The notes under the pieces: model-generated
Database searches by the model: none
The model's input: only the letters and a program-made list of their open reading frames with translations
What the model was told of the DNA's origin: nothing
Position numbers and translations under genes: made by a program
Source: a bacterium
Lineage (GTDB): Bacteria; Bacillota_I; Bacilli_A; RFN20; CAG-826
DNA length: 57,653 nucleotides
Direction of reading: 5' to 3'
Assembly (NCBI GenBank): GCA_963633165.1
Contig: CAVGXP010000029.1
Location: forward strand, 1 to 57,653
Shown here: positions 1,833 to 56,311 of the stretch, in pieces
How the letters are laid out: every line of letters begins with the position of its first letter
Numbering within the stretch: the stretch's first letter is position 1

Positions 1833-3700
<1,868 letters not shown>

Positions 3701-16768: not shown

Positions 16769-17754
16769 TCTTCCTCTCCTTTTCTTTTGAAGGAAAATAC
16801 GACGTTGCGAATTTCTTTAGCGTTTTTATCGCACATCAAGGTTTCATCCATCCTAGAGACAGGCTCGAAGGTTATCCCAGAACCCTTGGAATCCTCATTT
16901 CCTAGCAGCATCTTTTGCCCACTCACAGGATAGTTCGTCGCATAGATTTGGAAACAGGGTGCATCGGTGGTGACTTCTAAGACGTAATCTTTCCCGATGA
17001 GGGTTGCCTGAGGGGCTTCCCCTTCCTTGAGTAAGAAGGCGTGGTCCAACCCTCCGACGCTACTCACCAAAGAGGGGGCGAGGATATCCTTCCCCACCGT
17101 TTTGCCTTTTGAGAAGTCAAGCTCTTCGGTTGGCTTTTCAAAGCGAGATAAGAGCATCCCCTCCCGATAAACGGCGACTTCCTTTTGCCTTAATTTGAGC
17201 AAGCAAGGATAGATGCTTTCTTGCCCTAGGCAGAAATAAGCGTGGTTAGTGAGGTTGATGGGGGCGGCGATGTCTGGGATGGCTGACATCACAATCGAAA
17301 TTGTATCGTTTTCCTGGTCTAGAGTATAGGAAATGGAGGCATCGACATTTGCATTGTATTGCCCAAAGCAAGAAGGGAATTTCTTAAAGAAGATAACCGT
17401 GGTAGAAACATCACTTTCCTTTATTTCGTACTCAAACGGAGAGAAAGCATAGCAAAGCGAGCCACTATGGAGGGAATTGTTCCCCTCGTTGATAGGCAGG
17501 CAGCAGGGTTTCTCCCCCACCACGATATTTCCGTTTTCGACCCTTCCCGCGATGGGGCCGACGAATTTGCCATAATAGCTTTTTGAATGCGCGTAGGTCA
17601 GACAATCCTTAGGCGCGGCGAGCATTTGTTTCCCTTCGATTAGGAAAGAATACATTCCAGCCCCGAATTGGCTTAAGGTCAGGACGCTGCCTTTTCTAGA
17701 GACGACTTCGATAAGATCGTAGCCATCGCTTTGTTTATGAACGGAAACGCTCAT
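16765..17754 (-). CDS. galM: Aldose 1-epimerase (galactose mutarotase)
   Basis: 329 aa with NSLHSG and NHAYF motifs, in a Leloir-pathway context. Confidence 0.85.
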   Translation of the reverse strand: MSVSVHKQSDGYDLIEVVSRKGSVLTLSQFGAGMYSFLIEGKQMLAAPKDCLTYAHSKSYYGKFVGPIAGRVENGNIVVGEKPCCLPINEGNNSLHSGSLCYAFSPFEYEIKESDVSTTVIFFKKFPSCFGQYNANVDASISYTLDQENDTISIVMSAIPDIAAPINLTNHAYFCLGQESIYPCLLKLRQKEVAVYREGMLLSRFEKPTEELDFSKGKTVGKDILAPSLVSSVGGLDHAFLLKEGEAPQATLIGKDYVLEVTTDAPCFQIYATNYPVSGQKMLLGNEDSKGSGITFEPVSRMDETLMCDKNAKEIRNVVFSFKRKGEEE

Positions 17755-18959
17755 TGCTTTGCCTCCGAAAGAAGAATCGAAAGTTCATGCTTATCCATTA
17801 ATTTAGGAACCGGGTAAAGGGGATTGGCTTCTTTATCGGCGTGGACGGATAAAGCAGGGATATCCTCATCCTTGATGAGATTATCAAAGCCCGCCGGTAT
17901 GCCCATGGCAGTGTTTAAGCCTTTCACCCAATCGATGAAAGAAGTCGCCTGCTCGTGAACGTTCTTCGAATTCGAAAGACCTAGAAAGATAGAGGCCTGG
18001 GCAAGTTTTCTTTCCGCTTTCTTGCCATACCCTTTTAGGACGATAGGCAAAAGCACCGCGTTAGCGTAGCCGTGGGCGACGCCATAATATCCGCCTAGGG
18101 CATGAGCCAAGGCATGGACGTAGCCAACATATCCCCTAGTGAAGCTCACTCCGGCGTAAAAAGCGGCTTTTTGCATGGCTTCGGCGTGGGTTTTATCCTT
18201 GGGATTTTGATAGAAGCCCACCAAATGGTCGCGAATCAAGGCCATGGATTTAAGCGACATGTCTTTGGTCAGCTTACTCCTGGCCCCGCCGATAAAGCTT
18301 TCGATGGCGTGGGTCAAAGCATCCATCCCCGTCGAAGCGATCAAAGAAGGCGGCAAAGAGGTCAGCAATTCAGGGTCAAGCACAGCCAAGGAGGGGATCA
18401 GATGAGGGTCGTTGATCGCGAATTTGTCTTTCTTCTCCTCATCGACGACAACCGAGGCTATCGTCGCTTCCGAGCCCGATCCTGCGGTCGTTGGGATGGC
18501 GATAAGCAAAGGGATCTTCTTATGCACCTTTAAGACGCCTTTGTAGCAAGAGAGTTTTTTCTTGGGATTTATCGATTTAACCCCGACGGCTTTGGCGGCG
18601 TCGATGGCGCTTCCCCCGCCTAGGGCGAGCAAGCAATCGCATCCATTTTCAGCATAGGCGCCATAGGCTTCGTCAACGACTTTGAAGGGAGGATTGGGGA
18701 CGATGCCGGTAAAAAGGGCGTACCCTACCCCTTCTTTCTCCAGCGGATCGGTGAGCAATTTGATCGAGCCGTTGCGGAGGGAAGAAGGCGTCGCCAAAAT
18801 CAACGGTTTATGGACGTTTTTGCCCTTGAGGTAAGAGGGGATGCGTTTGAGGGAATCTTGACCCGAATAGACTTCAGGAACCCTGAAACGAATGAACTTT
18901 TGGGCTACAAAAAGGGATTTTTGATAGGCTCTGCAAAAGAAAGCGCGGAAGGGATTCAT
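17751..18959 (-). CDS. Iron-containing (group III) alcohol dehydrogenase
   Basis: GGGSAIDAAKA and downstream His-rich metal motifs. Start set at ATG 18959 with GAGGA 7 nt upstream; the track start is a TTG. Confidence 0.85.
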   Translation of the reverse strand: MNPFRAFFCRAYQKSLFVAQKFIRFRVPEVYSGQDSLKRIPSYLKGKNVHKPLILATPSSLRNGSIKLLTDPLEKEGVGYALFTGIVPNPPFKVVDEAYGAYAENGCDCLLALGGGSAIDAAKAVGVKSINPKKKLSCYKGVLKVHKKIPLLIAIPTTAGSGSEATIASVVVDEEKKDKFAINDPHLIPSLAVLDPELLTSLPPSLIASTGMDALTHAIESFIGGARSKLTKDMSLKSMALIRDHLVGFYQNPKDKTHAEAMQKAAFYAGVSFTRGYVGYVHALAHALGGYYGVAHGYANAVLLPIVLKGYGKKAERKLAQASIFLGLSNSKNVHEQATSFIDWVKGLNTAMGIPAGFDNLIKDEDIPALSVHADKEANPLYPVPKLMDKHELSILLSEAKQ

Positions 18960-18969
18960 CTTGTTTTCC

Positions 18970-20541
18970 TCATAAAAGCGGGTCAATGACCCTAAGCATG
19001 GACCAATAGCCTTGGTTCCTTATTCTCCAACGTTCCCACTCGCTTAGACTCACCTCGTGGCAAAGGGCGAAAGTGTCGTCGAAGTCCCTTTTCATGCTGC
19101 TGATCGATGGCACTCCCATAAGGAGGGTTCCGCATTCAAGATGGAGATAAAGTGAGCGATAATCGAGGTTGATGGTGCCGCAGGTGGCGTATTTGCCATC
19201 CACGAGAAAGGTCTTCTCATGGACGAAGCCCGGAGTGTATTCATAAACGCGGACTCCCGCTTTCAAAAGCTTGCCGTAATAAGACCGGGTGAGATTGAAA
19301 ACGGCTTTCTTATCGGGGATATGCGGGGTGATGAGCCTGACGTCGATGCCGCTTTTGGCAGTGCGGCAAAGGGCATTTTCCATTTCATTGTCCAAAATGA
19401 GATAGGGCGTGGTGATATAGCAATATTTCTCGGCTTTCTGCAAAAGGGAAAGGTAAACGGACTCCCCGACTTCCTCATGGCTGAAAGGAAGGTCGCCATA
19501 AGGCTGGACGAAGCCTTCAGTTTTAGGAAACCCGCCGACCTCATCGATGTAGGTTTCGGGCAAATATTGGGTTTTATCGATGTTTTCTTTATGGACGGAA
19601 GCCCAGGTGGAAAGAAAAAGCAAAGTCAAGGAATAGACGGCTTCGCCCCTAAGCATGATCGCGTTGTCCTTCCAATGGCCGAAACGTTCCAGGCGGTTGA
19701 CGTATTCATCGGCGAGGTTGAATCCCCCCGTGAATCCGGTGTGGCCGTCGATGACGAGGATTTTGCGGTGGTCGCGATTGTTCTGTCTGACGTCTAAAAT
19801 CGGGCGGAAGGGATTATAAGCAATGGCCTTGATGCCCATTTTTCTAAGTTTCAGGTCGTAACCTGAAGGAAGGGTGGAAAGAGAGCCGACGCTATCGTAA
19901 ATCACCCTGACGTCGACCCCCTCCTTCACTTTCTCAACTAGAATCTCGAGTATCGAATCCCAGAAAACGCCGGGAGCGATAATGAAGAATTCCATGAAGA
20001 TGTAGTGCTTGGCTTTTTTCAGTTCCCTTAGAATCGGCTCAAAGGCAAAATCCACCAGTCCGAAATATTCGACTTCGGTCCTTCCGTGCGCCCCCATTTT
20101 CCCGATGTTGACGAGGAAATCAGAGAGCGGGATCGCGGCGGGAAGCTGTTTGCGAATTTCGGAATGGGTCAGCTGATCGGTGGGGTGTTCCAAAATCGGG
20201 TAGCATTCTTTGGCCAGCTTTTTCCGGTTATGGCGGGAATCGGCTTTGTTGGCGAGGAAAACATACAGGAGGATGCCCCCGATCGGAAAGGCGAAGACGA
20301 AGAACATCCAAGCGATTTTGTAGGAGGCTGCGGAACCGCTGTTAATGATGTAAACGCTCAAGATGACATCAAGGGTGAAAATGAGCGCGATGAAATAAAG
20401 GATGAAGGTCGCCCCTTTCGCCGAATCGGTGACCACGCCCAAAAGGTAAAGCACTCCGAAAGCAACGAGCACCATTTGGGCAAGAATCAACAGCCCACAC
20501 AAAAGTTTTGGCAGAAAAGCAGGCGCGAAGAGTTTCTTCAT
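18970..20541 (-). CDS. cls: Cardiolipin synthase (PLD superfamily)
   Basis: Two N-terminal TM segments and two HKD motifs (HRKILVIDG, HEKTFLVDG). Confidence 0.9.
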   Translation of the reverse strand: MKKLFAPAFLPKLLCGLLILAQMVLVAFGVLYLLGVVTDSAKGATFILYFIALIFTLDVILSVYIINSGSAASYKIAWMFFVFAFPIGGILLYVFLANKADSRHNRKKLAKECYPILEHPTDQLTHSEIRKQLPAAIPLSDFLVNIGKMGAHGRTEVEYFGLVDFAFEPILRELKKAKHYIFMEFFIIAPGVFWDSILEILVEKVKEGVDVRVIYDSVGSLSTLPSGYDLKLRKMGIKAIAYNPFRPILDVRQNNRDHRKILVIDGHTGFTGGFNLADEYVNRLERFGHWKDNAIMLRGEAVYSLTLLFLSTWASVHKENIDKTQYLPETYIDEVGGFPKTEGFVQPYGDLPFSHEEVGESVYLSLLQKAEKYCYITTPYLILDNEMENALCRTAKSGIDVRLITPHIPDKKAVFNLTRSYYGKLLKAGVRVYEYTPGFVHEKTFLVDGKYATCGTINLDYRSLYLHLECGTLLMGVPSISSMKRDFDDTFALCHEVSLSEWERWRIRNQGYWSMLRVIDPLL

Positions 20542-44958: not shown

Positions 44959-44986
44959 ATTATAGGTTTTAAGCGCTTACATTCAA
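44959..44986 (-). promoter_or_regulatory. Candidate promoter of the GPH permease gene
   Basis: Minus strand TTGAAT-16 nt-TATAAT, about 27 nt upstream of the ATG. Confidence 0.55.
44968..44981. promoter_or_regulatory. Candidate catabolite-responsive element (cre) inside the permease promoter spacer
   Basis: TGTAAGCGCTTAAA (minus strand) matches 13 of 14 positions of TGWAANCGNTNWCA. Confidence 0.5.
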
Positions 44987-45002: not shown

Positions 45003-46043
45003 TTACCACTTATTGAACACTTTTTCGGCAAAGCCGGGGACGTCGGAGAAAGAGAAAGGACCCGATTCTGTCAAATACGAACCGCTGAAGGTGCCGAAGA
45101 CTTGATGCTGGTTGGAGCGAAGCAGCAAGGCGTTGGTATCGCTGTGGCGGTCATAGAGGGGGTGAAAACGGAGCTCGAAGCTATCTTCGGGGAAGCGAAA
45201 CAGCCAGTCCTTCATGAAGTCGTCGCTGCCGGATTTAGACAAAGGGATGTCGAAGATGACCCTGCCTAGCTTATGGGCTATTCCATCGATATAGATGACG
45301 TTTTCGGTGGCGTTAGAAGTATCGCCGAACCCATATCCAAGGTTCCATCCCAAGCGATGGCCATCGAATTCGGCGGAGACGGAACTCCAATACCAGGTGT
45401 TTTTATACGTCCAAACGCCCCTCCCCCAATCAAGGACGCCATAGGAGGATTTGTTGAAATCAAGGGTTCGCTCGCCGAGTTTGGCATAGCCATGGGCAAG
45501 GAGGCAATTGATCTTCTGATTGTAATAGAAATGGCCCTTCTTATTAAAAGGCGTGGCGATGACCAAGGAATCTTTGCAGGTTTCCTCCAAGGTTATGTCG
45601 CAATGGAAGGGAGTCTGCAGCTTATCGACGGATTTAATAAAGGCGACGAGCCTTCTTTTGCCGTTGCCTTGGTTTAGGAAAGAAAAAGAATAGCCTTTCT
45701 TTTCGTCCTTGACGATGACGTCTCCCTCTTTCGAGGATTCGGGGAGTTTGATCTTGTCGCCAGGAAAAGGGAGCATGATCGATTTGGTGAGGTCGAACTT
45801 GCTTTTGAAATCAAGGACGGAAAGGGAAATCAGACCCATATAGGAGTTGTTGGCAAGGGTCAGCGCGACGCCGTAATCGCTGTTTCCGACGTAATAATAA
45901 TCCCATTCCTTGAGGCGGTAGAGGAAGCTTTTCGCGCTTTTTCTCGAATATTCCTTCACTAAAGAGAAGGCATATCCGGCCTCTAGCAGGTCGCCTTTTT
46001 TGCTTAGCAAAGGGCCGGGGGTTAGGAGCTTTTGGTTATCCAT
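45003..46043 (-). CDS. DUF2804-like protein of unknown function
   Basis: 346 aa with KEWDYYYV, LDWGRGVW, TWYWSS and GFAEKVFNKW blocks that I associate with DUF2804. GAGGA Shine-Dalgarno; 28 nt after the hydrogenase stop. Confidence 0.5.
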   Translation of the reverse strand: MDNQKLLTPGPLLSKKGDLLEAGYAFSLVKEYSRKSAKSFLYRLKEWDYYYVGNSDYGVALTLANNSYMGLISLSVLDFKSKFDLTKSIMLPFPGDKIKLPESSKEGDVIVKDEKKGYSFSFLNQGNGKRRLVAFIKSVDKLQTPFHCDITLEETCKDSLVIATPFNKKGHFYYNQKINCLLAHGYAKLGERTLDFNKSSYGVLDWGRGVWTYKNTWYWSSVSAEFDGHRLGWNLGYGFGDTSNATENVIYIDGIAHKLGRVIFDIPLSKSGSDDFMKDWLFRFPEDSFELRFHPLYDRHSDTNALLLRSNQHQVFGTFSGSYLTESGPFSFSDVPGFAEKVFNKW

Positions 46044-46071: not shown

Positions 46072-47532
46072 TTATTCGCCTTTGGATGCGATTGAAGGGT
46101 CGGCCATGACGGTCGTAACGGCTTCCACGATACTCGTTTCCTTGGATTCGCGGCCGTATTTATCGACGTCGGCGGCGTCGCGGACTTCGTGGGTCAAGCA
46201 GCTAGGGCCGCCGATGCATCCGCCGGGGCAAGCCATGCCTTCGATGAAATTGCCTTCAAGGCGCCCCGCTTTGTATTTGGTGAGGGCCATTTTGCATTGA
46301 TCGAGGCCAGAGCATTTCACGGGCTTGACCTCAAAGTCGATGTTTTGCTCTTTCAAGGCCTCGTTGACGGCATCGGAAAGCCCGCCGCTTCTAGCGAAGA
46401 TCCTGCCGAAATAGGAGGCGTTGTCCAAAGGCTGGCCTTCAAGTTTGGAAAGATCGATGCCTCTAGAGTCGATGAGGGCTTGGAGCTCTTCGAAGGTGAT
46501 GACGCAGTCGACGTAAGGGGAAACTTCTTCCCTCTTGGCTTCCATCTTTTTGGCGATGCAAGGTCCGACGAAGACCGTTTTGCAGGTCGGGTCGATGGAT
46601 TTGAGGTATTTGCAGATCGCGCCCATCGGGGAGAGGTTGGTGGAGATTTTCTCCTTAAGCTCAGGGAAGGCGATTTCGATGTAGCGGAGGAAGGCCGGGC
46701 AGCAAGAGGAAGTGCAATCGCCCTTCTCAGCTAGCTCTTTGGCTTCGTTTAAAGCGACCATGTCCGCGCCTAGGGCGGCTTCGATGACGTCGGTGAAGCC
46801 AAGCTGCTTGATGCCGGAAACGACTTGAGGCAAGGTGGCGTAATGGAATTGGCTGGAGATTGAAGGGGCGACGACCATATAGGCCTTGTAGTTCTTTCCA
46901 CCCTCGGATCCCTTCAGGATGTCGATCAAAGGAAGAATGGCGCCTTTGTCCATGATGGCGCCGAAAGGGCAAGCGTAGGAGCATTGGCCGCAGCGGGTGC
47001 ACTTCTCCTCGATGATGTTGGTGATGCCGTCCTCGCCGCTTTTGATGGCGCCGACTTTGCAAGCGGATTCGCAGGGCCTCTTGCGGTTTAAGATAGCCCC
47101 AAAGGAGCAGGCTTTGGCGCACATCCCGCAGTTGACGCATTTATTTTTGTCGATGTGGGCGCGGTGATCCTCGCTGAAGCTTATCGCGTTGAGGCGGCAA
47201 GCCTGGGCGCAGCGATGGGCCAAGCAGCCCCTGCATAGATCGGTGACTTCCATCCCGCCGAAGGGGCATTGGTCGCAGGCTTCGGGGATGACCTCCAAGA
47301 TATTGGGGTTGTTCTTATCGCCCCCCATGGCGAGTTTGATTCGCGAAGAAGCGATGGCCCTTTCTTTATAAACGCAGCAGCGCATCGTCGCTTTCGGGCC
47401 CGGGGAGATGATGTAGGGAATCTGGTCTTTCTTTTCCATAAGATCCCCATCCCAATAAGCCGTCGCGACTTCTTTCAAGACGCGGTATTTGAGCTGTTGG
47501 ACAAGGGTGTCGAATTTTAAGGGCGTTGCCAT
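46072..47532 (-). CDS. [FeFe]-hydrogenase, monomeric multi-[4Fe-4S] type (HfsD-like position)
   Basis: At least three Cys-rich ferredoxin-type motifs (CRGCLAHRCAQAC, CVNCGMCAKAC, CTRCGQCSYAC). H-cluster motifs TSSCCPAF, VGPCIAKK and EGMACPGGCIGGP. AAGGAG Shine-Dalgarno. Confidence 0.85.
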   Translation of the reverse strand: MATPLKFDTLVQQLKYRVLKEVATAYWDGDLMEKKDQIPYIISPGPKATMRCCVYKERAIASSRIKLAMGGDKNNPNILEVIPEACDQCPFGGMEVTDLCRGCLAHRCAQACRLNAISFSEDHRAHIDKNKCVNCGMCAKACSFGAILNRKRPCESACKVGAIKSGEDGITNIIEEKCTRCGQCSYACPFGAIMDKGAILPLIDILKGSEGGKNYKAYMVVAPSISSQFHYATLPQVVSGIKQLGFTDVIEAALGADMVALNEAKELAEKGDCTSSCCPAFLRYIEIAFPELKEKISTNLSPMGAICKYLKSIDPTCKTVFVGPCIAKKMEAKREEVSPYVDCVITFEELQALIDSRGIDLSKLEGQPLDNASYFGRIFARSGGLSDAVNEALKEQNIDFEVKPVKCSGLDQCKMALTKYKAGRLEGNFIEGMACPGGCIGGPSCLTHEVRDAADVDKYGRESKETSIVEAVTTVMADPSIASKGE

Positions 47533-47545
47533 GGTGATATTCTCC

Positions 47546-48733
47546 TTAGAAATAATGGATTTGGACGTTTTTCCCGAGTGCCTTCAAACTTTGCGAAAGG
47601 CGCTCGATGATCTGCATCTTCATTTTGAAGGTGATGGGGCTATCGGGGGATTGATGGGCGGGATTGACCGCGCAGCCACAGTCGATGAGGATGTCGCTAG
47701 ATTCCTCAAGCAAGGATTTGGCGAGCAGGCTCGCCCCGTCTTGCCGATAGCTCCAGGTGAAATAGAGGTGATTTGAGGAGGCGTAATCCTCGACGTAAGA
47801 GAGGACTTTGTTGAGGGTGATGATGCCTTCGGTGGCGAGGTCGACGCCTTTGATAATCGAATAAGGGGGGACTTCTGGATCTTCTGAGTCAAGCCTCCCC
47901 TCCACCTCGCTTCCTAGATAAGAGGCGACGAGGCGACATGTCGTGCCTCCGCAGACGATGTGCTTGCCGCTACTAGCGAAGAAGGAAGAGAGGATTTGCT
48001 CATCCTCCTCTTTCCGGCTTGGCGGCCCGACGAGGAGGTTCGTCTTCATCCTTCCCCTTTTCTTAAGCACTAGGGCGGTGCAATCATCGCCAGGGTTGCG
48101 GTTATAGAGTTCGTCGGCTTTCTCTAATAGCACCGTGGCCAGGCTTTTGGAGGAGAGAAGGGAGGAATCGTTTCGCTCTAAGAAGGCATCTATTTCCTCC
48201 TCCCCCCAGCCGAAGTTCAGGCTCTCGCCGATCCCAGCGTGGACGACGCCATCGCTATATAGGCATAAGGTGGAGTCTAGGCCAAGATAGAAGGAGGCTT
48301 TCTTTATCGTCTTGCCCCCGACTAGAGAGGTCTCGTAAGCAAGAGGCACTTTCTTCCCCTGCCTAAGAAAAGCGGGCTCGGGGTTATCGAAGTTATAGAT
48401 GAGCCCGGTGTCGTCAGGGTTGATTTTCACCAAAGTAAAGGTGCTGTAGGCGACGTTCCCGCGGCTTTTGGATACGGGCAGGGTTTTGGCTAGGCTGAGG
48501 ACGCCTTCTTCTATCCCCACCCCTCCTTCGATCATTTGGCAAAGCATAGTGGAGGTGAGGGTGGACAAAATGCTCGCCTCAACCCCCGACCCGATGCCAT
48601 CGGCAAGGACGAGGGTCAATGACCCATCCTTGCCTTGGACCATCTTGACATGGTCGCCGCAGAGCTCTTCGCCTTTGTGATTGAGGGAAAGATAGCCAAC
48701 CTCAAGATAGCCCTCCTGCTCATTTGGCTCCAT
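47546..48733 (-). CDS. SpoIIE/PP2C-family serine phosphatase with an uncharacterised roughly 180-aa C-terminal domain (HfsC-like position)
   Basis: N-terminal GDHV...LADGIGSGVEASILS...GDDCTALVLK PP2C pattern. The ATG overlaps the HydS 3' end by 14 nt. Confidence 0.8.
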   Translation of the reverse strand: MEPNEQEGYLEVGYLSLNHKGEELCGDHVKMVQGKDGSLTLVLADGIGSGVEASILSTLTSTMLCQMIEGGVGIEEGVLSLAKTLPVSKSRGNVAYSTFTLVKINPDDTGLIYNFDNPEPAFLRQGKKVPLAYETSLVGGKTIKKASFYLGLDSTLCLYSDGVVHAGIGESLNFGWGEEEIDAFLERNDSSLLSSKSLATVLLEKADELYNRNPGDDCTALVLKKRGRMKTNLLVGPPSRKEEDEQILSSFFASSGKHIVCGGTTCRLVASYLGSEVEGRLDSEDPEVPPYSIIKGVDLATEGIITLNKVLSYVEDYASSNHLYFTWSYRQDGASLLAKSLLEESSDILIDCGCAVNPAHQSPDSPITFKMKMQIIERLSQSLKALGKNVQIHYF

Positions 48734-50411
48734 CTCCGCCCCCTTTCTTCTCCTTGAGGGCGTTAGAGAGGGCGGTCAGGGCTATTTTGGTGCTGGCGGC
48801 GGATTCCCCAAGCAACTGGGCGATCTGCTGGACGGTCTCCATGTTCTTCTCGATGACCTCGGAAGTGACTTTAGCGGTCCTTTCAGCGTCTTCGAGGTGC
48901 CTTTTCTTCCTCATCTCATGGTCGGTGACGTCGCGCAAGGAGGCGATGATGATGTGATATTTCTGATCGTAATGGATGGTGGCCTCGGCGATCCTGCCGT
49001 TGCTTAGTTCCATTTTCCTAAGATGCGTGCTTTGTCCCGACAAAGCCAAACAGAATAATTCGGGATCGATGAAATCGGAGACGTTATGCCCGATTAAGGC
49101 GCTGGGAGAGCCAACTTTTAGCAGCCCCGCCATCGCCGGGTTGGAAAGCTGGATGATGCAATCCTCGTTCAAGACGAGGATCCCATTTGGTGAATATTCC
49201 ACCACATCGCTTCCTAAGCTTACGGCTTTCTCGCTTAGATAAGGCAGGCACATCTCTAGGTTGGCTTTCCCTAGAATCACGGCTTTGGCCTTTTCCCGGC
49301 AGGAGGGATATCCGCAGCAAGAGCAGTTGAGCTCGTCTTTTTTGCTGGCTTTTCCGATCTGCCTAAGCACCTCTTCTATCTCTTCTTCGGAGATTTGCCT
49401 GCTCTCCCTATGGAGGTTAGGGAAATCCTTGATCAAATCTTTAGAAGATAAAGCCGCGGTTTGGAAATCCTCGTTTCCAGCGAAGTTCCTAAGATCGACC
49501 AGGCTTTGCAAAGGGCCGCAATGGCCCTTGCTTGCAGCAGGGCCGCCCAAGCAAGAGCCCGGGCACATGCTTAGTTCGAGGAATGCCCGGTGGATCTTCC
49601 CCGAAGAGGCTTCTTCCAAAGCCTCCATGCAATGCGTAGATCCCGACAAAGCGAGGTAGGAATAGCCCTCTTTCCTGCGCTTCATGGAGGAGATGATGCC
49701 TCCTTCGCTAGGGAAGAGGCGAGTCAAGGAATGGCTCTGCTTTTTCTCGCCGAGGGGCGAAAGAGAAACCTTATGGCGTGAAAGAAGCTCCTCAAGCTCT
49801 AAGAAAGTCAGCACGCAATCGGGGCCATTAGAATCCGTATCGGCTTCGACTTTTTTGGCGATGCAGGGGCCGATGAAGATGACTTTGCATCCTGGATGCT
49901 CTTTTTTAAGCATCCTGGCGTGGGCCTCCATGGGGGAAGGCACTTTGGCTAGATAAGGCAAAAGCGAAGGAAAGCGTTTCTGAATCAAAAGATTAAGACT
50001 GGGGCAGCAACTCGAGATGAGGATGTCTGGAGACTCCTCAAGGAGGCGTTCGTATTCCTCTTTGACAGTTTTAGCGCCCCTAGCGGTCTCCTCCACCCCT
50101 ATAAAGCCAAGCTTTCTTAGCCCTTCTTCCATCCCTTCTAATCCGACGCCAGGGAAAGAAGAGATGAAACTAGGGGCCAAGGAGGCGTAGCAATTCCCCT
50201 CTTTCAATAAGGACGAGGCCAAGGAGGTGTCGTCTCTGATCTTCTTGCATCCCTGCGGGCAAATGGAAAAGCAACGTCCGCAATAGACGCAGTCTTCAGG
50301 GATGATTGAAGCCCTTCCATCGGAAAAAGCGATGGCTTTGTTGGGGCAGGCGCGGATGCATTTGTAGCAGCTGCGGCAATCGTTGGTGAGGCTTAGCAAG
50401 GCATCGTTCAT
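48720..50411 (-). CDS. hydS: Putative sensory [FeFe]-hydrogenase homologue with PAS domain (HydS/HfsB-like)
   Basis: Two ferredoxin motifs (CRSCYKCIRAC, CVYCGRCFSIC). H-domain motifs SSCCPS, IGPCIAKK and ELSMCPGSCLGGP. A Cx2Cx4Cx16C motif (NCSCCGYPSC...C) and then a PAS-like C-terminus. Start at ATG 50411 with GGAGG 9 nt upstream. Confidence 0.8.
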   Translation of the reverse strand: MNDALLSLTNDCRSCYKCIRACPNKAIAFSDGRASIIPEDCVYCGRCFSICPQGCKKIRDDTSLASSLLKEGNCYASLAPSFISSFPGVGLEGMEEGLRKLGFIGVEETARGAKTVKEEYERLLEESPDILISSCCPSLNLLIQKRFPSLLPYLAKVPSPMEAHARMLKKEHPGCKVIFIGPCIAKKVEADTDSNGPDCVLTFLELEELLSRHKVSLSPLGEKKQSHSLTRLFPSEGGIISSMKRRKEGYSYLALSGSTHCMEALEEASSGKIHRAFLELSMCPGSCLGGPAASKGHCGPLQSLVDLRNFAGNEDFQTAALSSKDLIKDFPNLHRESRQISEEEIEEVLRQIGKASKKDELNCSCCGYPSCREKAKAVILGKANLEMCLPYLSEKAVSLGSDVVEYSPNGILVLNEDCIIQLSNPAMAGLLKVGSPSALIGHNVSDFIDPELFCLALSGQSTHLRKMELSNGRIAEATIHYDQKYHIIIASLRDVTDHEMRKKRHLEDAERTAKVTSEVIEKNMETVQQIAQLLGESAASTKIALTALSNALKEKKGGGDGAK

Positions 50412-50433
50412 AGGGGTGAACCTCCAAGGTGTC

Positions 50434-50456
50434 AAAAAGGGCCTGCACGCAGGCCC
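50434..50456 (-). terminator. Intra-cluster intrinsic terminator/attenuator between the [2Fe-2S] gene and hydS
   Basis: Minus strand GGGCCTG-CGTG-CAGGCCC followed by TTTTTGA. It lies 8 nt after the upstream stop and just before the hydS Shine-Dalgarno. Confidence 0.55.
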
Positions 50457-50463
50457 GATCGGA

Positions 50464-50721
50464 CTAGCCTAAAAGCGGAAGGACTTCCTCTTCAATGAAG
50501 CTCTTGGCCTTTTCGGGGGTGAGTCCGGAGACCACCTTGCCCCCTACTTTGACCGAAACGCCATCGCAGGCACAAGGACCGAGGCAAAAAGCGGCTTTGA
50601 GCTCGATCTTCTCCTGCAAATGGGCGTCCTCGATCTGTTGGCGCAGAGCGTCGATGAGTTGCCGGGAGCCCTTGAGGTGGCAAGAGCTCCCGACGCAGAC
50701 GGCAAGTTCGATTTTATCCAT
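50464..50721 (-). CDS. Thioredoxin-like [2Fe-2S] ferredoxin (NuoE/HfsA-like)
   Basis: 85 aa with cysteines in VCVGSSCHLKG and FCLGPCACDG. The ATG shares one nucleotide with the adhE TAA (TAATG). Confidence 0.7.
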   Translation of the reverse strand: MDKIELAVCVGSSCHLKGSRQLIDALRQQIEDAHLQEKIELKAAFCLGPCACDGVSVKVGGKVVSGLTPEKAKSFIEEEVLPLLG

Positions 50722-53366
50722 TAGTTCCCTTTGTAGGCGTCTTTCATGATCTGGATCATGTCCTCGACCATGGGCTCACGGGGGTTGCACGGGGTGCATT
50801 GGTCTTCGTAAGCCAAATACGCCAGCTCCTCTAGATGCTCATTATAGTTCTTTTCGTCGGGAATGATGGACTGGAAGTTCATATCGATGCCGATTTCCTT
50901 GCCAAGGTCCAAAACGGCTTTGGCGAGGTTGGCGGTGCCTTCCTCCGGCGTATCGGCTTTGATGCCAAGGACGCGGCAGATGTTCTGGTACTTCTTATCG
51001 GCTTGGTATTCCTCATACTTTGGCCAAAGAGCGAGCTTAGTCGGCTGAGTACCGTTGTATCTGATGACGTGAGGCAGCAAGATGCCGCAGGTCTGGCCGT
51101 GGATGGTGTGGAATTCTCCGCCCATCTTATGGGCTAAGGAGTGAACCAAACCAAGGAAGGAATTGGCGAAGGCCATGCCGGCGATGGTCGCGGCATTATG
51201 CATCTTCTCCCTGGCTTTGAGGTCGTTCTTCCCGTCTTTGACGGCGCGGGGGAGGTACTCGAAGACCAACTTAATGGCCTCAAGGCAGAGCCCATCGGTG
51301 AAGTCGCTGGCCATGACGGAGGTATAGGCTTCGATGGCGTGGGTGAGGACGTCCATGCCGGTGTAGGCCGTGGAGCGAGGAGGAATGTTGGTGGTGAATT
51401 CGGGATCGACGATGGCCACGGAGGGGGTCAAGGAATAGTCGGTAAGAGGATATTTCTTGAGGTTGGCCTTGTCGGAGATGACGGCGAAGGGCGAGACTTC
51501 GCTGCCGGTGCCCGAGGTGGTCGGGATGCAGATAAGTTTGCTCTTCCTGCCGAGTTCTGGATATTTGAAGGCCCTCTTGCGGATGTCCATGAACTTCTGC
51601 TTGAGGTCGTTGAAGTCGACTTCGGGGTGCTCATAGAAGATCCACATGCCTTTGGCGGCGTCCATGGCGGAGCCTCCACCAAGAGCGATGATGGTGTCGG
51701 GCTGGAATTCCTTCATGAGGGCGACGCCGCGGTTAACGGTGGAAAGATCGGGATCGGGTTCGACCTCATCGAAGAGTTGGTAGGTGACCGGGTTGCGGCG
51801 AAGAGCCAATTGGTCGGTGACTTTCTTAAGGAAGCCGAGCTGGACCATCGAATGGTCGGTGACGATGAAGACCTTATCGACGTCTTTGGCGGATTTGAGG
51901 TATTGGATCGAATTGCGTTCGAAATAGATCTTCTGCGGAACCTTGAACCACTGCATAGTATTTCTCCTCTTGCCTACTTTCTTGATATTGAGCAAATTGA
52001 TGGCCGAGATGTTGCCGGCGACCGAGTTGTGGCCATAAGAGCCGCATCCCAAGGTCAAAGAAGGGAGGAAGGAATTGTAGACGTTGCCGATGCCGCCGAA
52101 GGTGGAAGGCGAATTCCAAACGATGCGGATGGCTTTGACTTTGTCGCCGAAAGCATCAGACATCGCCTGCTCTTTGCAGTGGATGGCCGCGGTGTGGCCC
52201 AAACCGCCGAATTCGAGCATCTGCTCGCACATGGCGAAGCCTTCTTCGGCCCCTTTGACTTTATAGACGGCGAGGACTGGGGAGAGCTTTTCTCTAGAAA
52301 GGGGCTCAGCGGGGCCGACTTTGCTGCATTCTGCAGCGATGATCTGGCACCCTTCGGGGATTTCGAATCCCGCGTTTTTGGCGATGTTTTTGGCGCTCAT
52401 CCCCGCGACGGCGGGGTTGAGTTTGGCGGATTCGACGTCTTTGTCGCCTTTGCTGACGCCGAACATGAATTTCTCAAGGGCGCGGGCTTCTTTCTCGGAA
52501 GCGAAATAGACGCGGTATTTCTCTAGCATCGCCTTGGTCTCGGCATAGATTGCCTCGTCGACGAAGATGGCGGATTCGGAGGCGCAGATCATGCCGTTGT
52601 CGAAGGATTTGGACAAAACGACGTCATTGACGGTCTGGGGGATGTCGGCGGAGCGATCGATGTAGCAAGGCACGTTTCCGGCCCCGACGCCCAAAGCGGG
52701 TTTGCCGCAGCTATAGGCGGCTTTGACCATGGCGTTGCCACCGGTGGCGAGGATGGTCGCCACGCCAGGATGGTTCATCAAAGCGCTGGTGGCCTCCATG
52801 GAGCCGTGTTCGATCCACTGGATGCAGTTCTTCGGAGCCCCGGCGGAAACGGCGGCGTTTAGCATGACGGTCGCGGCTTCTTTGGAGCAATGGAAGGAAG
52901 AGGGATGGAAAGAGAAGATGATTGGGTTGCGTGTCTTGATGGCGATCAAAGACTTGAAGATGACGGTCGAGGTCGGGTTGGTGACCGGGGTGATGCCGGC
53001 GACGACGCCGACGGGCTCGGCGATCTCGGTGATGCCGGTGACGGGATCGTCGGAGATGATGCCGACGGTCTTGGTGTGGCGCATGTTGTTGACGACGTAT
53101 TCGCAGGCGAAGAGGTTCTTGGTGGCTTTGTCCTCAAAGACGCCGCGCTTGGTCTCTTCGATGGCCATCCTGGCTAAAGAGCCGTGATGATCGAGTCCGG
53201 CGACGGACATTTTGGCAACGATAAAATCGATTTTCTCCTGATCGTAGGTGGCGAATTCGTCGAGGGCCTTCAAGCCTTTCTTGACGAGCTCATCGACTTC
53301 CTTCTGGGCCGCTTCCTTTTTGGCGGCGAGCTCTTCCGGGGTCGGAAGCTTTTTCGTTTCTGCCAT
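50721..53366 (-). CDS. adhE: Bifunctional acetaldehyde-CoA/alcohol dehydrogenase
   Basis: 881 aa with an N-terminal ALDH domain and a C-terminal Fe-ADH domain (GGGSAMDAAK). The Shine-Dalgarno AAGGAGG lies in the last codons of rex. Confidence 0.95.
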   Translation of the reverse strand: MAETKKLPTPEELAAKKEAAQKEVDELVKKGLKALDEFATYDQEKIDFIVAKMSVAGLDHHGSLARMAIEETKRGVFEDKATKNLFACEYVVNNMRHTKTVGIISDDPVTGITEIAEPVGVVAGITPVTNPTSTVIFKSLIAIKTRNPIIFSFHPSSFHCSKEAATVMLNAAVSAGAPKNCIQWIEHGSMEATSALMNHPGVATILATGGNAMVKAAYSCGKPALGVGAGNVPCYIDRSADIPQTVNDVVLSKSFDNGMICASESAIFVDEAIYAETKAMLEKYRVYFASEKEARALEKFMFGVSKGDKDVESAKLNPAVAGMSAKNIAKNAGFEIPEGCQIIAAECSKVGPAEPLSREKLSPVLAVYKVKGAEEGFAMCEQMLEFGGLGHTAAIHCKEQAMSDAFGDKVKAIRIVWNSPSTFGGIGNVYNSFLPSLTLGCGSYGHNSVAGNISAINLLNIKKVGKRRNTMQWFKVPQKIYFERNSIQYLKSAKDVDKVFIVTDHSMVQLGFLKKVTDQLALRRNPVTYQLFDEVEPDPDLSTVNRGVALMKEFQPDTIIALGGGSAMDAAKGMWIFYEHPEVDFNDLKQKFMDIRKRAFKYPELGRKSKLICIPTTSGTGSEVSPFAVISDKANLKKYPLTDYSLTPSVAIVDPEFTTNIPPRSTAYTGMDVLTHAIEAYTSVMASDFTDGLCLEAIKLVFEYLPRAVKDGKNDLKAREKMHNAATIAGMAFANSFLGLVHSLAHKMGGEFHTIHGQTCGILLPHVIRYNGTQPTKLALWPKYEEYQADKKYQNICRVLGIKADTPEEGTANLAKAVLDLGKEIGIDMNFQSIIPDEKNYNEHLEELAYLAYEDQCTPCNPREPMVEDMIQIMKDAYKGN

Positions 53367-53368
53367 TG

Positions 53369-54013
53369 TTATTTTTCCTCCTTGGCAAGTTCGACGTTGA
53401 GGCGGTGGCTAAGCACCGCTAGTGACGAAGCGAGATTGACGTTTTCGACGACCACTCCTTCCTTCACCTCCAATTGGACGGGGGCGAAGTTCCAGATGGC
53501 CTTGGCGCCAGAAGCGATGGCGAGATCGCACACGCCTTGGGCGTAGCTGGCGGGGACGGTGAGGATGGCGATGTTGGCTTTCAATTGGCCCATGAGTTCG
53601 GGGAGCCTGTCCACGGGGAAGACCATCTTGCCCCCGAGCGTCTTGTTGACGAGCTCAGGGTTGGAGTCGAATCCCGCAAGGATCTGAAGGCCCATTTCCT
53701 CGAATGCGGGGAAATTGAGCAAGGCGCCTCCAAGGTGGCCGCAACCGATGAGAACGGCGCTGGCGGCTTCGTGGTAGCCCAGGAATGATTCGAGATCTTC
53801 CACCAGCTGCTTGACGCTTCTACCTTTCTTCGGCCTTCCGGCTTCTAGAGATACGGCTTGAAGGTCTTTGCGGACCTGTTCCTCGCTGTAGCCTAGCTTT
53901 GCGGCGATGCGCGGAGAGGAAACAAATTCCACTCCCTCGCTCAGCAGTTCCTTAAAATATTTAAGGTATATAGGGTAACGGCCGAGTTGATTGTTTGAGA
54001 ACTTATTAGTCAT
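53369..54013 (-). CDS. rex: Redox-sensing transcriptional repressor Rex
   Basis: Winged-helix N-terminus (YPIYLKYFKELL...VSS..IA) and the Rossmann motif LIGCGHLGGALLN. Start at ATG 54013 with AAGGAGAG upstream. Confidence 0.9.
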   Translation of the reverse strand: MTNKFSNNQLGRYPIYLKYFKELLSEGVEFVSSPRIAAKLGYSEEQVRKDLQAVSLEAGRPKKGRSVKQLVEDLESFLGYHEAASAVLIGCGHLGGALLNFPAFEEMGLQILAGFDSNPELVNKTLGGKMVFPVDRLPELMGQLKANIAILTVPASYAQGVCDLAIASGAKAIWNFAPVQLEVKEGVVVENVNLASSLAVLSHRLNVELAKEEK

Positions 54014-54403
54014 GGTCTCTCCTTTCGCTAATCCTTTACCGAAAAGAATACTATGCGCATGAATGTATAAAATCAATGAAAAAGTATTTTTTTACCGTTA
54101 TACTCATTATAGAAATCAGTAATTTTCAGTCGGTATAACGTTAATTGCGAATTGTTGCCTTTTCATCGATGGTTTTTGTAAGGGGTTTCAATGAAAATGG
54201 AAGCGCTTACTACTGCATTTTCAAGTCAAGATAGATGCCTAAAATATTTTTTATTGACGTTTTTTACGCATTCGTTTTTATTTCATGTCTTTTTTATTTT
54301 CCCCGTTTTATCGATATGTTTTTGTTTCAACTGTTATACATTTCCTCTGAAAGAAATAACGATATTACCGGTATCACTTTCCAAACCGCCTTTATATCGG
54401 TAA

Positions 54404-54443
54404 AGAAAAAAACGCGTTAGGTAGAACGAGGTTCCTAACGCGT
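54404..54443 (-). terminator. Intrinsic terminator after the surface-protein gene
   Basis: Minus strand ACGCGTTAGG-(12-nt loop)-CCTAACGCGT followed by TTTTTTTCTTT, 25 nt after the stop. Confidence 0.7.
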
Positions 54444-54468: not shown

Positions 54469-56148
54469 TTATTCAGCTTTCTTCTTGTTAACGAAGACCA
54501 ATCCAGCGACAACCACTCCTCCGAGGGCAAGGAAGCCAAGGGAAGACATCGAAGCCCAATCCGCGGTTTTGACGGCGGACAAAGGAGATCCTTTGCCGTT
54601 GGTCGGATTGATGCTTGCATCCCAATAGTCATAGACGGCCTTGGCTTCAGCGTATTTAGTATGGATGTTGAAGAGCTGCTGGGCTTTATCGCTCAATTCA
54701 TCGTAAGCGGTCGCGGCGTACTCATATTTGGTTTTGCAGCTGTCCCCTTCTTCCGGATCGCCAGAATAGGGAGTGATCCAGGTGGCGACGAAGTTATCGA
54801 CTTCGGTGAAGAGGGAATCGCTGATTTCCGAAATGGAATACGTCATGGAAATAAGCTTAACGCCTTTAGCAATGTTACTAATCTCAAAGGAAATCGAATC
54901 GGCAAAGACGGAAGAAGAGGAGGAAACGGTGACGTTGTTACTGCTGTTCAATGCACCGGTTCCAATAACGGTTGAGCCGGCTTTAATAACGATGTCGCCG
55001 GCGGCGCTGCTGTTACCGCTAAAGTTAGCAACGACGGAATCGACGGAATAAAAATCGTTCAGAGCGCCTTTTACCAAAATCGAAGAAGCGGGCTTGTCTT
55101 TTGAGCCAATTTGAGAAAAATTCGGATTAGCGGTAAAGGAAGTTGTCCCAGTAGCGGCACCCGTCCAAACAATCCCCTCCGAGTCTTCGAAAGTCGCGGA
55201 TGCAGTTTTGAAGTTCCACGAACCATTAGCGCTTCCAAAAGAAATGGTCACGGGTTCATTAGATTTATCAGCGACGGTGATAACTCCATCGAAGGAGGCG
55301 ACGACCGAGCCTGAGGAGTCTTTTACGGACACCGTGTAGGCAGTGCTACCAATAGATTTGGCGGATACGTTAAGTGTGGTCTTGTCTTCTGTGATAGAAA
55401 CCTCAGCAACGGAAGAATCGACAACCGACGCTTCATAGCTACAGTCGGTAGGCAAATTCGAAGTAACCAAAGAATAAGACGCGGTTTTATTGGGCCTGAG
55501 GTCAATCTCAGAGCCGTCAGTGACCGTAACGCTAGGCTTTGGCTCTTCAGACGTCGTCTTATAGGTGATTTTAAACTGAACCTGAGAATTATTGGCATTT
55601 GTGACTTGATACCAGAAATACTTCGCGCCTTCCGGGAGTTTGGGGGTCAAATCATAGACAGAATCTAGTTTTGAAAGCGTTCCGGTGTACTGAGCCAATT
55701 TGGAAGGGTATTCAGAAATAAGGTCGCTACTAAAATAAACACCAATAGAAACTGCGGTGCTCGCTCCTTTGTTGGCGTAAATCTCAAAGGATTCGATTCC
55801 GCTTCCAAAAGGCGTTGTATTGTAAATGTAAGCACCTTTCTTGCCGATAAGAACCGCGGACTTGTCCTTCGCAAGCTTATTTGAACCGCTTGACCCCTGC
55901 TTTTTCGCCCCTTTTGAGAATACATACTCAATCTCATCATCCGATGTGATGGTAGTGTCTTTCGTTGTTGCGGTGTCCGAAAGACCGTCCATATCCCCAT
56001 GAACATAGCTGGTTTGGACATCGGATTCAGCTTTCACCGCCACCGCTGCGTTATTGCCAAGCGAGGACATTCCTGCGCCAACGGCGAAGGAAGAGATGGA
56101 GACGGCTAAGGCCAACAGGCCTAAAGCGAGGATGGAATTCTTTTTCAT
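54469..56148 (-). CDS. Secreted/surface protein with an N-terminal signal peptide and a C-terminal TM anchor
   Basis: Start at ATG 56148 with AAGGAG 7 nt upstream. MKKNSILALGLLALAVS signal peptide, an S/T/V-rich beta-type body, and a C-terminal LGFLALGGVVVAGLVFVNKKKAE anchor. There is no LPXTG. Confidence 0.6.
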   Translation of the reverse strand: MKKNSILALGLLALAVSISSFAVGAGMSSLGNNAAVAVKAESDVQTSYVHGDMDGLSDTATTKDTTITSDDEIEYVFSKGAKKQGSSGSNKLAKDKSAVLIGKKGAYIYNTTPFGSGIESFEIYANKGASTAVSIGVYFSSDLISEYPSKLAQYTGTLSKLDSVYDLTPKLPEGAKYFWYQVTNANNSQVQFKITYKTTSEEPKPSVTVTDGSEIDLRPNKTASYSLVTSNLPTDCSYEASVVDSSVAEVSITEDKTTLNVSAKSIGSTAYTVSVKDSSGSVVASFDGVITVADKSNEPVTISFGSANGSWNFKTASATFEDSEGIVWTGAATGTTSFTANPNFSQIGSKDKPASSILVKGALNDFYSVDSVVANFSGNSSAAGDIVIKAGSTVIGTGALNSSNNVTVSSSSSVFADSISFEISNIAKGVKLISMTYSISEISDSLFTEVDNFVATWITPYSGDPEEGDSCKTKYEYAATAYDELSDKAQQLFNIHTKYAEAKAVYDYWDASINPTNGKGSPLSAVKTADWASMSSLGFLALGGVVVAGLVFVNKKKAE

Positions 56149-56311
56149 TCTTTTACTCCTTTTGGGCAAAGGGTTTCGAAGAAAAACGCCGAAAAGGGGA
56201 TATTTACCCTTTTGCTGATGTCTGACTTTTTCCTTTGGAAACCAAAATTCACGGCCCTTTTATAACAAAGCTGAATACTTTTTTCCACCCTGCTTTAGAT
56301 TGATAAATGCC

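Follow-up and report, generated by a model that had tools for sequence, protein, structure and literature searches.

The closest described relative of the locus analysed here lies on the 420-kb megaplasmid pRUMAL01 of Ruminococcus albus 7, where a search of the plasmid proteins finds, after a LysR gene, Rex, AdhE, a phosphotransferase, two (2Fe-2S) ferredoxins, HydS, a SpoIIE phosphatase and a 478-aa hydrogenase. This eight-gene cluster was found to be 111-fold down in co-culture with an H2 consumer, a response explained by a co-transcribed group C hydrogenase and phosphatase that sense H2 (Greening et al. 2019, PMC6776011), and the same H2-sensing proposal is credited to Zheng et al. 2014 by Eminoglu et al. 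2017 (PMC5707799). A second, chromosomal Rex of R. albus showed no response to co-culture. Our subject is contig CAVGXP010000029.1 of assembly GCA_963633165.1, from a bacterium of lineage CAG-826, whose 57,653 nt are referred to below as the window. Its minus strand carries six co-directional genes for Rex, AdhE, a small [2Fe-2S] protein, HydS, a PP2C-type phosphatase and a second hydrogenase, and the R. albus cluster contains orthologues of all six in the same order and orientation. The R. albus genes reportedly form one transcription unit, a finding attributed to Zheng et al. 2014. A preliminary description of the window had presented the joining of rex-adhE to a putative H2-sensing module as new; since the R. 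albus cluster is orthologous and has the same order, this arrangement is an already described operon type. We interpret the locus, with moderate confidence, as a 'high-hydrogen fermentation' operon of the R. albus type in a version with six genes, with proposed control by Rex and HydS.

The hfsABCD operon of Thermoanaerobacterium saccharolyticum offers a second comparison. Its PAS hydrogenase HfsB, Ser phosphatase HfsC and HydA2-like ferredoxin-linked hydrogenase HfsD, as described in PMC11837493, follow each other in the same order as their counterparts in the window, and to this extent the hfs-like order that had been proposed is upheld. HfsA, a possible counterpart of the 85-aa 2Fe-2S protein of the window, is described differently in the same source. 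In T. saccharolyticum adhE (tsac_0416) and rex lie outside the hfs operon, whereas in the window both are found directly upstream. The operon is genetically linked to adhE expression: deletion of hfsA or hfsB increases ethanol yield ~1.8-fold and the adhE transcript 2-3-fold (PMC5707799), in agreement with the earlier statement that loss of hfsB raises ethanol yield. The same concept, a low-activity hydrogenase acting as H2 sensor with a phosphorylation-dependent output, is represented by the [NiFe] regulatory hydrogenase system HoxBC-HoxJ-HoxA of Ralstonia eutropha, although the proteins are unrelated and a histidine kinase and response regulator stand in place of the PAS and PP2C domains of the window.

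Open reading frames (ORFs) and family profile scans support the six genes at the positions and with the families first assigned to them. The first gene, rex (53369-54013), encodes a 214-aa Rex-family redox-sensing repressor matching NF003994 at 242 bits (cutoff 130) as well as PF06971 and PF02629. It is followed by adhE (50721-53366), whose 881-aa product is a bifunctional acetaldehyde-CoA/alcohol dehydrogenase (NF010378, 1371 bits, cutoff 951) with Aldedh, Fe-ADH and ADH_Fe_C domains. The third gene, fdx (50464-50721), encodes an 85-aa thioredoxin-like [2Fe-2S] ferredoxin (2Fe-2S_thioredx, PF01257, 36.5 bits against a cutoff of 24.8), which corresponds to the C-terminal half of NuoE/HydC and shows Cx4C and Cx3C motifs in its translation. 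The putative sensory [FeFe]-hydrogenase of group C type, 563 aa long, is encoded by hydS (48720-50411; ribosome-binding site GGAGG at ~50421-50425), and the 395-aa SpoIIE/PP2C Ser/Thr phosphatase (PF07228) by the gene at 47546-48733. The row is completed by the gene for a 486-aa hydrogenase (46072-47532) that matches the 'monomeric [FeFe] hydrogenase B1' model TIGR04105 at 551 bits (cutoff 450) and shows the canonical L1-L3 motifs TSSCCP, GPCIAKK and EGMACPGGC, including the EGMAC that had been read in it. Gaps of 0-28 nt had been claimed between these genes; the measured values, from rex to the hydrogenase gene, are 2, -1 (overlap), 52, -14 (overlap) and 13 nt. The exception is the fdx-hydS gap of 52 nt, which shrinks to 28 nt only if hydS starts at a possible alternative TTG at 50435.

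Identity to the R. albus 7 proteins amounts to 41% for Rex, 45% for AdhE, 42-44% for the ferredoxin, 42% over 97% of the length for HydS (classed as group C by Greening et al.), 44% for the phosphatase and 60% for the hydrogenase (HydA2). R. albus HydA2 passes the group B1 model TIGR04105 at 577 bits, and R. albus Rex belongs to NF003994. The two clusters differ in that the R. albus version has a 249-aa APH/RIO-like kinase and two ferredoxin genes, whereas the window has no kinase and a single ferredoxin gene. They also differ in their setting: IF2 and NusA are encoded at the other end of the window, which places this locus on a chromosome and not on a megaplasmid, and its host, an uncultured lineage of gut Bacilli, belongs to a different bacterial class from the Oscillospiraceae host of the R. 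albus cluster.

A HydS search restricted to one genome per species retrieved 38 loci, 23 of which carry rex-adhE-(kinase)-fdx-hydS-PP2C-hydrogenase in the order of the window. The six-gene order is thus present in at least 23 species-level genomes from uncultured gut Bacilli and Ruminococcus, a recurrence far beyond chance, and together with R. albus 7 this synteny shows that it is not peculiar to one genome. The loci fall into two groups by label, one of metagenome-assembled genomes (MAGs) named Candidatus Enteromonas, Bacilli, Bacillales or 'Mollicutes', and one named Ruminococcus, Ruminococcaceae or Eubacterium sp. CAG:180. An extra gene for a 249-aa APH/RIO/Pkinase-like protein between adhE and fdx occurs in the seven Ruminococcus-type loci and R. 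albus only. The closest public relative of the window, L002 (CAVJMG010000003.1), is 98% identical to it in Rex and AdhE and shares its flanking genes for DUF2804 and a major facilitator superfamily (MFS) protein; its label, 'uncultured Bacteroidales bacterium', looks like a binning or annotation error because all other relatives are Bacilli-type MAGs.

Reduced versions of the cluster were found as well, in part through a second sample drawn by similarity to Rex instead of HydS (L041-L048). In L043 (10001-13286) rex-adhE lacks the sensor module and is followed by a LytTR/HATPase_c_5 pair, L044 (2574-3489) retains rex with a mere remnant of adhE, and L045 (10001-14806) has rex, adhE and the group B hydrogenase gene without fdx, hydS and the phosphatase gene. 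Conversely, L021, L022 and L040 have fdx-hydS-PP2C-hyd without rex or adhE. As rex-adhE, rex-adhE-hyd, the full cluster and fdx-hydS-PP2C-hyd all exist, these variants show the sensor module to be an optional insertion into a Rex-controlled adhE/hydrogenase unit.

The cluster of the window is itself divided. A terminator- or attenuator-like hairpin (50434-50456, minus strand; GGGCCTG-CGTG-CAGGCCC followed by TTTTT) occupies the 52-nt gap between fdx and hydS, and for the 46 nt around it the folding energy is -19.4 kcal/mol (z-score -2.66). Hairpin and T-run are found at the same place, with different stems, in L001, L002, L004, L005, L009, L010, L011 and L028, and by fold only in L012. The closest relatives keep the hairpin with four different stem sequences, so that the structure is conserved and not the sequence. 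More distant loci, R. albus among them, have short fdx-hydS gaps and no hairpin; in R. albus the gap is 10 nt, in contrast to the hairpin and T-run of the window clade. The stretch from the T-run to the ribosome-binding site of hydS is too short to hold a promoter. The hairpin may be a leaky terminator or a stabiliser of the mRNA end that sets adhE above the sensor genes. The idea of the six genes as one tight operon needs qualifying, because the conserved terminator-like hairpin splits rex-adhE-fdx from hydS-PP2C-hyd.

This division has to be weighed together with the reduced loci, since both are what would be expected if the linkage reflected shared Rex control only, with the sensor governing the adjacent hydrogenase and AdhE responding solely to NADH/NAD+ through Rex. 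The existence of rex-adhE (L043) and rex-adhE-hydrogenase (L045) without a sensor, and of the sensor half without rex or adhE, speaks for such independence. Yet deletion of hfsB alters adhE expression in Thermoanaerobacterium, where the loci are unlinked (PMC5707799), all genes of the R. albus cluster respond together (PMC6776011), and the adjacency has been kept across two bacterial classes. We consider mere co-regulation quite improbable.

The protein on which the proposed H2 sensing depends has every sequence feature of group C hydrogenases, a group defined among other things by an atypical C-terminal four-Cys cluster (PMC13104023), and its sensing function is predicted on these grounds. 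HydS matches Fe_hyd_lg_C at 152 bits and FeS (PF04060) at 35.8 bits. Its H-cluster motifs are SSCCPS at position 133, GPCIAKK at 181 and ELSMCPGSC at 279; two Cx2Cx2Cx3C motifs stand near the N-terminus (residues 12 and 41), and the C-terminal cluster C363-x2-C366-x4-C371-x16-C388 falls inside the PF04060 match. All motifs listed for this protein in the preliminary description (SSCCPS, GPCIAKK, CPGSC and Cx2Cx4Cx16C) are present where they had been read. Among the 120 closest HydS homologues, the H-cluster ligands C136, C183, C283 and C287 are invariant in 119-120, and all Cys ligands are invariant or nearly so. Alignment to solved hydrogenases sets ELSMC opposite EVMAC, which identifies the Met-to-Ser change as the M497 position of CpI. 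Both G181, at the position of CpI M353, and S281, at that of M497, are kept in 119 of the 120 homologues. The sensory hydrogenase of Thermotoga maritima (TmHydS), an enzyme of very low activity, has G177 and S267 at these same positions (PMC10055695), so that the resemblance noted earlier is borne out by alignment and literature alike.

The likeness to TmHydS (group C, M2f) extends to the whole domain plan of N-terminal 4Fe-4S clusters, H-domain, C-terminal four-Cys cluster and PAS domain; a difference is the proton-relay Cys, which the window HydS keeps (C135, in SSCCPS) and TmHydS replaces with Ala131. The PAS assignment needed closer support, as PAS_9 scores 21 bits in the window protein, under the cutoff of 27. 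PF00989 (PAS) is matched by 35 of 40 HydS homologues, and the AlphaFold model of the window protein (mean predicted local distance difference test score, pLDDT, 85.7) places a five-strand alpha/beta module at residues 410-494. Homologues and model together thus support a C-terminal PAS module despite its weak Pfam score, and the 563-aa protein combines H-cluster ligands with a predicted PAS fold. The PAS module is followed by a strikingly conserved 60-residue C-terminal helix (residues 496-556, encoded at 48744-48926 on the minus strand), whose invariant residues include M524, V527, Q528, I530, A531 and L533-G535, and which is likely a docking or signalling helix.

The retained C135 would fit a different role for this protein, in which the four downstream genes form a multi-subunit catalytic hydrogenase of Hfs type, with HydS and the 2Fe-2S protein as electron-transfer subunits and the phosphatase tuning the hydrogenase or AdhE post-translationally. 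Deletion of the whole hfsABCD operon in T. saccharolyticum lowers hydrogenase activity and H2 production, and NADH-dependent alcohol dehydrogenase activity rises without a matching rise in aldehyde dehydrogenase activity, which points to post-transcriptional control (PMC5707799). Deletion of hfsB alone, in contrast, increases hydrogenase activity (PMC5707799), so HfsB is not needed for catalysis. The group B enzyme, moreover, stands alone in L045, where it is encoded without fdx, hydS and the phosphatase gene, and the Gly and Ser substitutions of the very weakly active TmHydS are conserved in the window protein. A catalytic complex of this kind appears unlikely to us.

The phosphatase encoded after hydS matches SpoIIE (PF07228) at 64.6 bits, and its residues 1-227 make up a PP2C fold in which D27, D45, D161, D216 and D217 are invariant across 38 sequences. 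Its model (pLDDT 86.9) retrieves 5mqh, 3pu9 and 3ke6 in Foldseek at E = 1e-13 to 1e-12, and the N-terminal half resembles SpoIIE, RsbU and RsbX structures at E = 1e-13 to 1e-10. With these partner-switching phosphatases it has the PP2C fold and the metal-binding Asp residues in common. Unlike the SpoIIE, RsbU and RsbX systems, it has no STAS substrate and no HATPase_c kinase nearby, and it possesses an extra 165-aa C-terminal domain.

This C-terminal domain (residues 228-395; 47549-48052, minus strand) is modelled confidently as a separate alpha/beta domain of ~165 aa and contains invariant GGT, D..EG and N.AHQ motifs. It finds nothing in Pfam even at E = 10, a Foldseek search with the whole phosphatase model returned PP2C structures only and no match for this part, and a profile search of the sequences in the PDB yielded a single marginal SIS-like match (GmhA, 3trj, E = 0.31). 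We found the domain in 918 cluster representatives, nearly always at residues 224-390 of ~390-aa proteins, and because of this constant position it seems to be a private, unclassified domain of HfsC-type phosphatases.

The preliminary description had noted that a kinase or STAS partner is absent, and Pfam scans and tblastn agree on this. No protein kinase, STAS or HATPase_c domain was detected in the 38 window ORFs scanned with Pfam, and the window, like all related loci examined, has neither a STAS substrate nor a HATPase_c kinase. A tblastn search of the window with the kinase of L016 gave nothing better than E = 1.8, and a LysR homologue was likewise not found. As a candidate target of the phosphatase or a kinase we considered the Ser of the Rex wing. 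Among the 120 closest Rex homologues (P0389-P0508), the position that follows KDLQA[VI] holds Ser in 103 proteins, Cys in 15 and Ala in 2, and non-Ser forms are found in loci that have the sensor module as well as in loci that lack it. The candidate was rejected: P0497, P0452 and P0477 are non-Ser forms in complete, sensor-containing clusters, so the Ser is not required.

In canonical Rex regulons, a winged-helix and Rossmann-fold repressor acts at a palindrome (TTGTGAA-N4-TTCACAA, or TTGTTAA-N4-TTAACAA in Clostridia) that overlaps the promoter, and as in these regulons such a repressor stands in front of adhE in the window. Rex of the window shows GCGHLG and FD motifs, and its best solved relative is 3wg9 (E = 1e-35). 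Its wing, KDLQAVSLEAGRPKKGRS, belongs to a subfamily with KDLQAVS..G.PKKGR in contrast to the KDLSYFG..G..GxGY of solved Rex proteins, so that AVS...GRPKKGR replaces SYFG..G..GxGY. No canonical Rex box (N4 pattern, up to 3 mismatches) lies near the locus, and such matches are in no excess over chance. What precedes rex is an 18-bp palindromic box with the same 7-4-7 geometry, TCGGTAAAGGATTAGCGA (54025-54042, minus strand), whose 7-nt half-site reads TCGGTAA and whose consensus is TCGRTAA-N4-TTAYCGA. The box is the sole match to this consensus in the 57.6-kb window. It begins 5 nt past the -10 hexamer of a putative sigma-70 promoter (54048-54076, minus strand; -35 TTGATT at 54076-54071, a 17-nt spacer, -10 TAGTAT at 54053-54048), and 11 nt separate its end from the rex ATG. 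In L020, L025, L032 and L016 the box is preceded by elements of this layout with better hexamers (TTGACx-17-TATAAT), and in many loci the box starts 3-5 nt past a good TATAAT.

Across the 38 loci, which are related to one another, the box has 46 matches with up to 2 mismatches, and 40 of these are found in the 200 nt that precede rex or hydS, a space that makes up 1% of the sequence. At least one copy is present in all 28 rex-containing loci, often two copies 56-60 bp apart, against an expectation of 0.12 in shuffled upstream windows. The hydS loci that have no rex (L021, L022, L029-L031 and L040) have no such box, and L040 carries a canonical Rex box in its place. The loci drawn by Rex similarity (L041-L048) also have the box upstream of rex, including those without hydS; in L041, where rex and adhE are 224 nt apart, it is found upstream of rex with two more copies upstream of adhE. 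As L041, L043, L044 and L045 all keep it, the box tracks this Rex and adhE and not the sensor. The box is most simply explained as the probable operator of this Rex subfamily, to which Rex is predicted to bind.

The box would have another meaning if it were bound by the LysR protein of some loci or by a regulator whose gene lies elsewhere. A LysR gene stands beside the cluster in R. albus and in four Oscillospiraceae-type loci, and in the latter a TCGATA-N6-TATCGA palindrome lies upstream of hydS exactly 53 nt from a canonical Rex box (L023, 9861/9914; L024, 5462/5515; L027, 1255/1308; L035, 7718/7771); canonical boxes are present in Ruminococcus-type loci, too. Against a second regulator, the Bacilli-type loci have the box and no LysR gene, while LysR-containing Erysipelotrichaceae loci that lack rex have no box. 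In its 7-nt half-sites and 4-nt A/T-rich spacer the box is built like a Rex operator, and in L043 and L044 it has followed rex where nothing else of the full cluster is left. We give another binding protein a small chance. The four Oscillospiraceae-type loci are also distinct in their gene content, hydS-PP2C being linked there to a HydABC-type bifurcating hydrogenase, preceded by the LysR gene and followed by fdx and adhE. A catabolite-responsive (cre, CcpA) site was rejected by inspection as the identity of the box, as the central CG of cre is missing and the spacer is A/T-rich. A text search of the literature for the box sequence together with Rex returned nothing relevant, and Rfam gave no match at E <= 1 for the 5' region and the internal gap.

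Taken as an operon of the R. albus type, the locus would work as follows. Transcription would start from a single promoter upstream of rex, guarded by the product of this first gene at the box overlapping the transcription start. A build-up of H2 would block NADH-dependent H2 formation and raise NADH/NAD+, Rex would leave its operator and the operon would be switched on. AdhE, as a sink for NADH, and the group B hydrogenase, as a sink for ferredoxin electrons, would be co-induced, the former draining NADH to ethanol while the latter goes on re-oxidising ferredoxin to H2. Read-through of a leaky terminator after fdx would keep the dosage of sensor, phosphatase and hydrogenase below that of adhE. 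HydS, in turn, would read H2 at its H-cluster, with the small [2Fe-2S] protein as a probable redox partner, and would relay the signal to the PP2C phosphatase by way of its C-terminal [4Fe-4S] cluster, PAS module and long C-terminal helix; the phosphatase would then alter the phosphorylation state of a target phosphoprotein. The expected dependence of expression on H2 is borrowed from R. albus, and that of adhE on the sensor from the hfsB deletion in Thermoanaerobacterium. The preliminary description had suggested that the locus integrates H2 and NADH signals to choose between H2 and ethanol: its anatomy agrees with this, and its function does so by comparison with these orthologues, which at the same time remove the claim to novelty.

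Several observations weigh against this scheme. The predicted rex promoter agrees with the consensus at 8 of 12 positions, which is under the threshold of the scan, and, as there is no canonical box near the locus, Rex control rests wholly on the TCGGTAA-type box. In Ruminococcus-type loci canonical Rex boxes stand alongside the TCGRTAA-type box, so that two regulators may be involved and the assignment of boxes to proteins may be reversed. In R. albus 7 itself (L039, ~3262-3280) the only related palindrome, TCGATAA-AGATA-ATATCGA, has one extra spacer base and lies ~85 nt ahead of rex, and the 17.6-kb stretch of pRUMAL01 contains no canonical Rex box at up to 2 mismatches. Efficient termination at the internal hairpin would demand an internal promoter for hydS-PP2C-hyd, and none was found. 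Finally, because no kinase is encoded in the window, the relay based on the phosphatase has no visible counterpart. A more far-reaching version of the proposal would join a distinct Rex subfamily, with a remodelled wing and its own operator, TCGGTAA-N4-TTACCGA, to a kinase-less HydS-PP2C pair acting as a self-contained H2 switch with help from the C-terminal domain of the phosphatase, its output converging with NADH sensing on the operator or acting directly on AdhE; this we regard as a speculative long shot.

The surroundings of the cluster contribute further features. A DUF2804 gene (45003-46043, minus strand; PF10974, 378 bits) is co-directional with the hydrogenase gene and lies 28 nt 3' of it, with no terminator detected between the two. 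It adjoins the cluster in L001, L002 and L012 and is nearby in L004, L005, L009 and L011, and may be a seventh cluster member in the window clade only. The MFS transporter gene beyond it has its own good promoter match at 44959-44986. On the other side, directly 5' of the rex promoter, a gene at 54469-56169 (minus strand) encodes a protein of 566 aa that has no Pfam match; its N-terminus resembles a signal peptide, and a hydrophobic anchor stands at its C-terminus. The gene ends in an intrinsic-terminator-like hairpin and T-run of its own (54405-54443, minus strand; GACGCGTTAGG...CCTAACGCGT followed by TTTTTTT), a predicted terminator that isolates the rex promoter region. Unrelated to the cluster is a second gene for an iron-containing alcohol dehydrogenase (17751-18986, minus strand, 411 aa), which sits in a row of Leloir-pathway genes with those for aldose epimerase, galT and galK.

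The choice between H2 and ethanol in fermenting bacteria underlies interspecies hydrogen transfer in guts and rumens as well as the engineering of ethanol yield. The question of how [FeFe] H2 sensors deliver their output was opened by the R. albus cluster and not by the locus of the window, which shows that abundant uncultured gut Bacilli have the arrangement as well, in a minimal, kinase-less form. The new leads are modest: a candidate operator, a conserved internal hairpin and a private phosphatase domain. Two handles, the candidate operator that tracks the Rex of the cluster and the modular natural variants, make the regulatory wiring directly testable. If true, a switch made of a distinct Rex and a self-contained HydS-PP2C pair would supply the output step of [FeFe] H2 sensing.

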